This document shows positions 31,594 through 32,502 of a stretch of 64,000 bases of DNA, in pieces. The translations under genes were made by a program, and so were the position numbers. This DNA is from Candidatus Heimdallarchaeota archaeon (GTDB taxonomy: Archaea; Asgardarchaeota; Heimdallarchaeia; JABLTI01): assembly GCA_019056785.1 (NCBI GenBank), contig DXJV01000084.1, positions 64,001-128,000 of the forward strand, read 5' to 3'. The notes under the pieces are model-generated. The model saw only the letters and a program-made list of their open reading frames with translations. It searched no databases and was not told the origin of the DNA. The first letter of the stretch is position 1. Each line of letters opens with the position of its first letter.

Positions 31594-32502
31594 ATGAACC
31601 ATTCCATGTCAACGAGCAAAAGTGAAAACATAATTCTCCCCCCAGAGGTCCTAGACAAATTACTTGCACCAATCCCCAAAAAGATTCTAGTTGAAAAAGT
31701 AGGCGAACACCTGGGAGAAAACGAAAGTAAGCCATTTGAAGCTAAGCAATCGAAAAGAGAATATGTCACTCAACATCTCGGGCAAAAATTTTCTCTTGAA
31801 TTTTTACGTGAAATGCGAGCACTCCATGAGCATTATAACATTAAGAATTTCAATTGGCTCTTATTTCGCTGGGATAAAGATATTACAAATTATTTTCCGG
31901 AATTAATGAAAGAGCAATTTGAAAAAGTGATCAAAAAACTTGACTCGTTGATAACGGTTGATTTTTTAGTGGTAGATAAAAAAAACAAAACGGTCTTTCT
32001 CCTGCTAGAAAATTGGAAAAACGAGATCATTGCTGATGCTATTATTAAGAGAGTGGAAGCAAAAATCCCAAAATATTTCAGGGCGTATTTTTCTCTTTCG
32101 AAAAAAATGCTTTTAATTCAAGAACGAAGCAAGCAAGCTACAAAAGATTTCCTCGCGTTATTTAAACAAGCATATGCTGTCAAATTACAAGAAATCAGAA
32201 TTAATGCCATGGTCATCCGAGAATTTGTTAAAAGAAACCCAAAAAAATTAACAAAATTGACTGTTAAAGTCCCTCAAGAAGTTGCTGGCTTTAATGGCTT
32301 GAGCGAATTAACGATTGTTGGCTCAGATGTGATTAAAGGTTCGAAAGGACTAATGGACCGGCACGAAACTTCACCCATACTCATTGGCCCATGGGTAGGA
32401 GTCGCCAATAAAAAAATCGAACTTAAAGTAGGCGAATCTTTAAAAACCAGCGGAATTAGTCATGTTCTGAAATTATTTGACCTTATAACGGAACTTTCAT
32501 GA
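31594..32502 (+). CDS. Hypothetical protein, putative CENP-N/Chl4-like
   Basis: 302-aa ORF (open from 31528). Resemblance to CENP-N is by eye from remembered sequences; see findings. Confidence 0.55.
   Translation: MNHSMSTSKSENIILPPEVLDKLLAPIPKKILVEKVGEHLGENESKPFEAKQSKREYVTQHLGQKFSLEFLREMRALHEHYNIKNFNWLLFRWDKDITNYFPELMKEQFEKVIKKLDSLITVDFLVVDKKNKTVFLLLENWKNEIIADAIIKRVEAKIPKYFRAYFSLSKKMLLIQERSKQATKDFLALFKQAYAVKLQEIRINAMVIREFVKRNPKKLTKLTVKVPQEVAGFNGLSELTIVGSDVIKGSKGLMDRHETSPILIGPWVGVANKKIELKVGESLKTSGISHVLKLFDLITELS

Follow-up and report, generated by a model that had tools for sequence, protein, structure and literature searches.

A conserved, single-copy Asgard archaeal protein with a predicted fold nearest to CENP-L, CENP-N, and RdgC

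Closest Described Systems and the Locus

In the inner kinetochore, CENP-L and CENP-N together make up a vault that grips DNA. We analyzed a gene for a protein of 302 amino acids whose predicted structure resembles both of them; it is located at positions 31594–32502 (+) of a 64,000-bp stretch of DNA (hereafter, the window) from a Candidatus Heimdallarchaeota archaeon (assembly GCA_019056785.1, contig DXJV01000084.1, positions 64,001 to 128,000). In the eukaryotic proteins, CENP-L consists of a CENP-L/N homology domain (CLN-HD) interrupted by a dimerization region just before its C-terminal helix, and the dimerization domain of CENP-N comes after the C-terminal helix of the homology domain (Pentakota 2017, PMC5777823); the pyrin domain and the CLN-HD of CENP-N touch DNA (PMC5777823). 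The CENP-LN vault holds double-stranded DNA (dsDNA), and RdgC is a DNA-encircling homodimer (PMC9235857). CENP-LN was proposed to derive from a homodimeric singleton, and the pseudo-GTPase CENP-M binds close to the CENP-LN dimerization domains (Pesenti 2022, PMC9235857). No significant sequence similarity of CenpL and CenpN to other proteins was reported, and both were assigned only to the broad TBP-like fold class (Tromer 2019, PMC6601020).

The archaeal protein is basic, conserved, and encoded by a single-copy gene; its predicted structure comes closest to those of CENP-N/Chl4, CENP-L/Iml3, and RdgC, both over the whole chain and in the C-terminal domain. Judging from the model, the protein is probably an archaeal member of the RdgC/CENP-L/CENP-N structural superfamily. 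A common ancestry with CENP-L/N, beyond the shared fold, is possible. Neither membership in the Pfam CENP-N family by sequence nor a specific histone-reading role was supported.

The unannotated open reading frame was located exactly where the initial annotation had placed it, with an ATG at 31594, a TGA stop codon at 32500–32502, and 302 codons, according to the list of open reading frames and the translation. A longer TTG-initiated frame is possible from 31528; the ATG is favored because about 40 homologs of 302–306 amino acids align from Met1. An A+T-rich intergenic region at 31425–31593 (+), read from the sequence, is the presumed promoter. The protein has an isoelectric point (pI) of 9.59 and a net charge of +14, which is concentrated in residues 81–302; the N-terminal helical domain is neutral (net charge 0). 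Even with unfiltered wide family profiles, one copy was found in the genome from which the window comes.

Predicted Fold of the Whole Chain

The AlphaFold2 model, built on a 34-sequence alignment, had a predicted local distance difference test score (pLDDT) of 82.4 and a predicted template-modeling score (pTM) of 0.80. The modeled chain starts with a helical N-terminal domain (residues 12–80 with helices 17–24, 29–40, 54–62, and 68–80; window 31627–31833 (+)), also delimited by the CENP-N/Chl4 alignments, and continues with a TBP-like beta-alpha-beta4-alpha unit corresponding to the CLN-HD (residues 81–197; 31834–32184 (+); net charge +9). It is followed by an alpha/beta C-terminal domain, the best-conserved part of the family (residues 198–287; 32185–32454 (+)), and by a C-terminal helix packing back onto the TBP-like unit (residues 288–301; 32455–32499 (+)). 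The curved antiparallel beta-alpha-beta4-alpha sheet of the TBP-like superfamily, the succession of a pyrin-like helical domain and a CLN-HD known from CENP-N/Chl4, and the RdgC fold across both halves of the chain were all present in the model. The helical N-terminal domain and the TBP-like sheet are the two elements that the initial annotation had expected in a relative of CENP-N. A conserved loop of the TBP-like sheet (residues 144–159; 32023–32070 (+)) was modeled with low confidence (pLDDT <50), and W141, T149, L151, E155, and P159 were invariant or almost so in the alignment of close homologs; we infer that this loop would act as a finger that becomes ordered upon contact with a partner or DNA.

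All 26 matches with E<=1e-3 found by Foldseek in the PDB were Iml3/CENP-L, CENP-N/Chl4, or RdgC (best value of 1.3e-7). After re-ranking of the list, its top 18 rows also came from CENP-N/Chl4, CENP-L/Iml3, and RdgC only, and this restriction to three groups supports a fold-level link to CENP-L/N and RdgC. The same groups were the best structural matches for an exhaustive aligner run over 48,161 representative chains: CENP-N (Z 12.6; model 12–302 on CENP-N 1–212, 191 residues aligned, root-mean-square deviation (rmsd) 4.0), Chl4 (Z 12.4; model 10–300 on Chl4 10–265), Iml3 (Z 11.2; model 84–302 on Iml3 1–240), CENP-L (Z 10.7; model 78–302 on CENP-L 62–342), and RdgC (Z 10.4; model 81–302 on RdgC 2–299). 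Single TBP-like domains had Z values of at most 8.5 and covered model residues 75–203 only. Since the CENP-N alignment starts at its residue 1 and 191 of 207 residues are aligned, most of the pyrin domain (1–77) must be covered. The RdgC and Iml3 alignments start only at model residue 81–84, and those of CENP-N's N-terminal region, CENP-L, Iml3, and RdgC all reach residue 300–302.

In the ESM Atlas, a search by shape retrieved clusters of CENP-L (TM-scores of 0.54/0.65), CENP-N (0.49/0.61), and RdgC, as well as bacterial hypothetical proteins, a GAPS4b_N cluster, and DEAD/ResIII helicases containing the fold as a domain. By language-model features, a CENP-N cluster came no higher than rank 71 with a score of 0.81, which is taken as a lead only. 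The fold thus occurs in bacterial proteins too (RdgC, GAPS4b-like proteins, helicase fusions), so that the fold alone is no proof of a special kinetochore link, and similarity of fold is by itself not enough to identify the prokaryotic family closest to CENP-L/N.

C-Terminal Domain and Chain Topology

Residues 195–302, folded separately with a 35-sequence alignment, gave a pLDDT of 90.7. The five best Foldseek matches of this domain alone were CENP-L or Iml3 (E 0.14–0.5), all top 11 re-ranked rows were CENP-L, RdgC, or Iml3, and the best structural match was CENP-L 205–339. The domain carries the signature motif of the family, VPQEVAGFxGL...G.DV..G..GL..RHE...GPW.G (residues 226–272; 32269–32409 (+)), which was defined from invariant columns. 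In total, 44 columns were invariant in the alignment of close homologs. Residues P227, Q228, E229, G232, F233, G235, G243, V246, G249, and G252, as well as L253, M254, R256, H257, P261, G265, P266, W267, and G269, were invariant in 34 close homologs, and G232, G243, G249, and G265 were invariant throughout the wide family.

In the model, as in CENP-L and Iml3, an insertion splits the homology domain ahead of its C-terminal helix; the domain of the dimerization type is placed there, before the last helix, as in CENP-L, Iml3, and RdgC. Because this C-terminal arrangement is of the CENP-L type, the protein resembles CENP-N in its first half and CENP-L in its second. As modeled, it is not specifically CENP-N-like over its full length.

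With CENP-N/Chl4 (PF05238; 6EQT, 6C0W, 6QLD_N), the archaeal protein shares the helical N-terminal domain followed by the TBP-like CLN-HD, and its C-domain motif G.D[VI]..G...L ... GPW/PGW aligns with the C-terminal fragment of Chl4. However, no significant profile match was obtained, the dimerization-type domain precedes rather than follows the last helix, and the gene is present in a single copy in a genome without a CENP-L-like partner gene. With CENP-L/Iml3/Fta1 (PF13092; 7PKN_L, 7XHN_L, 4IT3, 4KR1), it shares the topology, with the insertion before the C-terminal helix, but not a profile match, and its N-terminal helical domain is fuller and aligns best with that of CENP-N. RdgC (PF04381; 2OWL, 2OWY), the bacterial recombination-associated DNA-binding ring, is similar in length, is encoded by a single gene, is basic, and serves as a model for the homodimeric DNA-encircling form of the fold. 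It differs in the absence of a profile match and of the N-terminal helical domain, and in being bacterial.

The N-terminal resemblance could mean that the protein is a true counterpart of CENP-N. Its helical domain would then read archaeal histone-DNA particles in the way that CENP-A nucleosomes are read by CENP-N, and the protein would be a chromatin reader and not a generic DNA clamp. CENP-N and Chl4 had the highest Z values (12.1–12.6) and aligned from CENP-N residue 1, pyrin domain included; the N-terminal blocks chosen in the initial annotation are colinear with this structural alignment. In an unverified pairing of the first block, P28 would stand opposite CENP-N P17, which is highly conserved and tied to DNA-backbone contacts, and in the second block the basic residues of KQSKRE would face R42, R44, and K45 of CENP-N, which contact DNA (PMC5777823). 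On the other hand, the gap in Z to CENP-L and Iml3 is about 1, which is a tie under the rule of the tool itself, and CENP-L alignments also take in part of the N-terminal domain, from model residue 26–27. The topology of the C-terminal half is CENP-L-like, the N-terminal domain carries no net charge, and a PDB search with the profile of residues 1–130 did not recover CENP-N (E<=10). We therefore consider a true CENP-N counterpart quite unlikely. To our knowledge, archaea have no CENP-A and hence none to be read in the manner of CENP-N.

Sequence Similarity

The initial annotation had compared six hand-picked blocks with human CENP-N and described the similarity as colinear from end to end. All six quoted archaeal strings were found in the protein (at residues 18, 39, 87, 105, 231, and 265), and the two CENP-N strings long enough to be checked were exact (human CENP-N residues 30–52 and 104–123, PDB sequences). 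Identity within these hand-picked blocks was 27/87. Blocks 2–5 lie at their best ungapped placement, whereas blocks 1 and 6 do not, and block 6 scores negatively. The colinearity in the N-terminal part matches the structural alignment with CENP-N; the C-terminal half is of the CENP-L/Iml3/RdgC type. The proposed likeness to a Chl4 motif was borne out: HMMER pairs the family string leGedVikGlegL...vGpW with FNGNDIFGGLHEL...VPGW of Chl4, in the register that had been suggested.

A significant match to the CENP-N profile was not obtained. The cut-off of PF05238 (25 bits) was not reached, with no match for the 302-residue protein at E<=10, and the Pfam CENP-N hidden Markov model (HMM) found nothing in the genome from which the window comes. 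The cut-off of the CENP-L profile PF13092 (24.4 bits) was not reached either, the protein giving no match, and RdgC (PF04381) was not among the Pfam-wide matches at E<=10 of the protein or of 35 relatives. Sub-threshold PF05238 matches were found in 1 of 35 full-length relatives (E 0.19) and in two C-domains out of 35 (best E 0.091). No other family among the 24,736 in Pfam was matched by more than one of these C-domains. The C-domain profile ranked the C-terminal, Iml3-binding fragment of Chl4 (4JE3_B) first of 177,635 PDB sequences (E 0.86, 12.7 bits). The sequence signal of the C-domain may thus be described as faint yet specific, each result being sub-threshold; these matches are worth noting because they agree with the structural result.

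Recurring weak matches to Sld7 and Rb were taken as chance. Residues 23–53 (window 31660–31752) matched Spire WH2 repeats weakly with two different profiles (3MN7_S, E 0.32–0.67), which is probably also due to chance.

Several points weigh against placing the protein in the RdgC/CENP-L/CENP-N superfamily. Its structure is a predicted model, and the Foldseek TM-scores over the whole chain were modest (0.41–0.48) with rmsd of 6–10 Å, pointing to differing domain orientations. Neither the protein nor three family profiles had a significant match in Pfam, NCBIfam, and PDB sequence searches, and no statistically significant sequence link to the CENP-N, CENP-L, or RdgC families was found. In 83 genomes of the class, the PF05238 and PF13092 HMMs gave five stray weak matches each, with 0/83 at the locus. 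Most relatives are basic, but a few are acidic (pI 5.2–5.7). The extreme conservation of the Gly-rich R-H-E motif would equally suit an enzyme or a protein-binding site.

Alternatively, the resemblance could be convergent or an artefact of prediction, and the protein would have an unrelated role, e.g., in enzymatic catalysis by way of the invariant Gly-rich/Arg-His-Glu motif. Such an explanation fits the lack of significant sequence similarity to known families, the wide use of TBP-like units as building blocks, and the conservation of the motif to the degree of an active site. We consider it very unlikely, since in independent searches by Foldseek and the exhaustive aligner the top ranks were taken by CENP-L/N and RdgC alone, with the whole chain as well as with the C-domain, the weak sequence matches indicate the same family, both models (whole chain and C-domain) are confident, and no enzyme family was matched by sequence. 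A reading as a triphosphate-tunnel enzyme was rejected.

Proposed Mode of Action

By analogy with the described members of the superfamily, we infer that the protein would be a homodimeric dsDNA clamp. Two copies would pair via the conserved C-domain in the way that CENP-L and CENP-N join each other and RdgC joins itself; the two basic sheets would then arch or form a ring around a single DNA duplex, with the N-terminal domain making additional contacts with DNA or a chromatin protein. The possibly homodimeric, pre-duplication form suggested in the initial annotation fits the single copy per genome and the homodimeric-singleton idea (PMC9235857), the dimer itself being putative. A homodimer prediction gave a score of 0.39 against a mark of 0.42, with controls at 0.00, and counts neither way.

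Another protein with a related shape is GAPS4b (PF26110 N-domain), the ring subunit in an anti-phage nuclease of bacteria, for which a two-subunit ring around dsDNA was predicted (PMC13748975). The GAPS4b_N cluster matched with a TM-score of 0.48 by shape and a score of 0.89 by language-model features. In contrast to GAPS4b, a defense-island protein partnered with a PD-(D/E)xK nuclease, the archaeal gene is present in one copy in a housekeeping setting, lacks a nuclease partner, and gave no consistent match with PADLOC. A reading as a defense system was rejected: the lone weak PADLOC match (PDC-S02, E 4.6e-4) was absent from three relatives, and the neighbors are housekeeping genes.

Conservation and Distribution

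About 40 close homologs with 45–75% identity were found in metagenome-assembled genomes (MAGs) of Heimdallarchaeota/Asgard; they are 302–306 amino acids long, apart from two shorter entries of 212 and 284 amino acids. A HMMER scan of 1.84 billion representatives added about 35 distant relatives of 250–316 amino acids (E 1e-12 to 1e-4), the named sources of which are Hodarchaeales, Helarchaeota, and Heimdallarchaeaceae. A repeat homolog search with the wide profile revealed no further taxa, and the scan of the genome collection with the narrow alignment returned close Heimdall MAGs only.

To count the distribution, the narrow profile was run over 400 genomes of the phylum. Within the same class, five families (f1, f2, f3, f5, and f6) account for 77 of these genomes, 72 of which had exactly one copy; the 5 genomes of two other families (f4 and f7) had none. 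Outside the class, scattered matches occurred in seven families, and one family of 135 genomes had no match. In the gene tree, each sampled GTDB family with more than one locus (f1, f3, f5, and f6) formed a clade; the deeper nodes were not resolved. The gene is a housekeeping gene inherited within lineages, and it is neither mobile nor part of a defense system.

Genomic Neighborhood in the Lineage

The gene order in the genus and family comprises genes for an SMC_N-like ATPase, a class-III aminotransferase, a long Rpb5, a 59-residue ferredoxin, the CENP-L/N-like protein, a proline-rich protein of 248–292 amino acids, ThiI, an unknown 137-residue protein, an AIR-synthase-like protein, and Pus10. 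With DNA ligase, Rpb5, ThiI, and Pus10 among the neighbors, the neighborhood is a housekeeping one and not an island.

Some of these neighbors have features of their own. The gene at 27104–28984 (+) encodes an apparent SMC/Rad50-like ATPase of 626 residues, whose SMC_N match spans both ends but stays below threshold (E 1.3e-4; 21.9 bits, with the cut-off at 40); its gene order is kept in the examined loci of related Heimdall MAGs (L001–L003). The usual archaeal RNA polymerase subunit H is short and consists of the C-domain only. Rpb5/RpoH encoded at 30425–31051 (+) is the long, eukaryote-style form with 208 amino acids: its C-domain occupies residues 130–202 (PF01191, E 4.5e-29), and the N-terminal extension of about 125 residues has weak restriction-endonuclease-like matches (NA-iREase1, E 6.7e-5). 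At 32642–33457 (+), a 271-residue protein without a Pfam match is encoded, with a long Pro/Ala-rich center between helical ends; in each of the four sampled family loci, it is the next gene downstream of the CENP-L/N-like gene (139-bp gap). The 137-residue open reading frame at 34375–34788 (+), also without a Pfam match, lies between the genes for ThiI and the AIR-synthase-like protein, a position kept in three of the four sampled family loci; the contig of the fourth ends before it.

GTPase and Other Neighbors in Relatives

A gene for a Ras-family GTPase with an intact P-loop directly adjoins the CENP-L/N-like gene in 8 of 21 sampled loci (Hodarchaeales, f6, f15, f17, f26, and f32), and a locus of Helarchaeota is the ninth such case. 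These GTPases match PF00071 with E values of 1e-42 to 1e-56 and Roc with 1e-26 to 1e-34. No GTPase gene adjoins the gene in the window. The best match in its genome to the profile of the neighboring GTPases (219 bits; the runner-up among more than 30 paralogs scored 163) is encoded at 26455–27012 (+) of the contig (C84), about 37.5 kb before the start of the window and 69 kb upstream of the gene, to which it is unlinked.

In three of the sampled loci (L025, L029, and L031), the GTPase gene lies next to one for a PDCD5-type dsDNA-binding protein (PF01984). In four others (L017, L020, L030, and L032, from f2, f3, f5, and f24), a basic zinc-ribbon protein of about 130–160 amino acids is encoded directly upstream of the gene. 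The protein from L032, the sole member of this cluster with Pfam matches, has weak winged-helix matches after the zinc ribbon. The zinc-ribbon/winged-helix protein may be a small DNA-binding partner or regulator.

A trio of genes for a PDCD5-type protein, a Ras-family GTPase, and the CENP-L/N-like protein, the last two often divergently transcribed, recurs in L025, L029, and L031/L044. L044 is record DATKTP010000217.1, apparently the same contig as L031; this MAG contig is labeled Candidatus Deferrimicrobium (a bacterium) and carries the Asgard trio, and its gene layout matches that of a contig in a genome assigned by GTDB to the Asgard phylum. A taxonomic mislabel is likely. An apparent bacterial member of the family (P0047, NCBI label Deferrimicrobium) was rejected as such: its gene layout matches that of locus L031, and its contig apparently belongs to a genome placed by GTDB in the Asgard phylum.

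The adjacency of the GTPase gene in these nine loci, together with a very strongly conserved surface motif that could be a protein interface, raises the alternative of an effector or adaptor of the GTPase that acts by protein–protein contacts and does not bind DNA, comparable to the TBP-like domains in adaptin appendages and to COR after Roc GTPases. The TBP-like matches in question extend over about 90 residues only and do not surpass those to dozens of other TBP-like domains. The full-length matches are to DNA clamps. Moreover, the protein is strongly basic, and the window lacks an adjacent GTPase gene. The PDCD5-type and zinc-ribbon/winged-helix neighbors also argue against an effector, as they indicate a nucleic-acid setting. 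An effector or adaptor role is, in our view, unlikely.

Within the clamp reading, the position of the GTPase gene may recall, by analogy, that of CENP-M beside the CENP-LN dimerization domains. We tentatively put forward, as a somewhat doubtful proposal, that the family is the surviving, unduplicated homodimeric singleton ancestral to CENP-L and CENP-N, with the adjoining active Ras/Rab-family GTPase as a forerunner of CENP-M.

Significance for Asgard Archaea

We failed to find any report of an Asgard relative of CENP-L/N or RdgC in a literature search of incomplete coverage, and CENP, kinetochore, centromere, and RdgC were not mentioned in the main text of recent surveys in which Asgard proteomes and chromatin were studied on the basis of structure. 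We know of no homodimeric singleton in the archaeal lineage ancestral to eukaryotes. The family described here joins a CENP-N-like N-terminal half to a CENP-L-like C-terminal half in one predicted chain, is present in single copy, is inherited within each sampled Asgard lineage, and occurs almost throughout Heimdallarchaeia, Hodarchaeales among them; it would let the homodimeric-singleton hypothesis be tested directly. If the proposal of a singleton with a GTPase forerunner is true, an inner-kinetochore core consisting of a DNA clamp and a GTPase would be older than eukaryotes. Should the kinetochore link fail, Asgard archaea would still have in this family a conserved, wholly uncharacterized protein that is a candidate for a chromatin protein or a DNA clamp.
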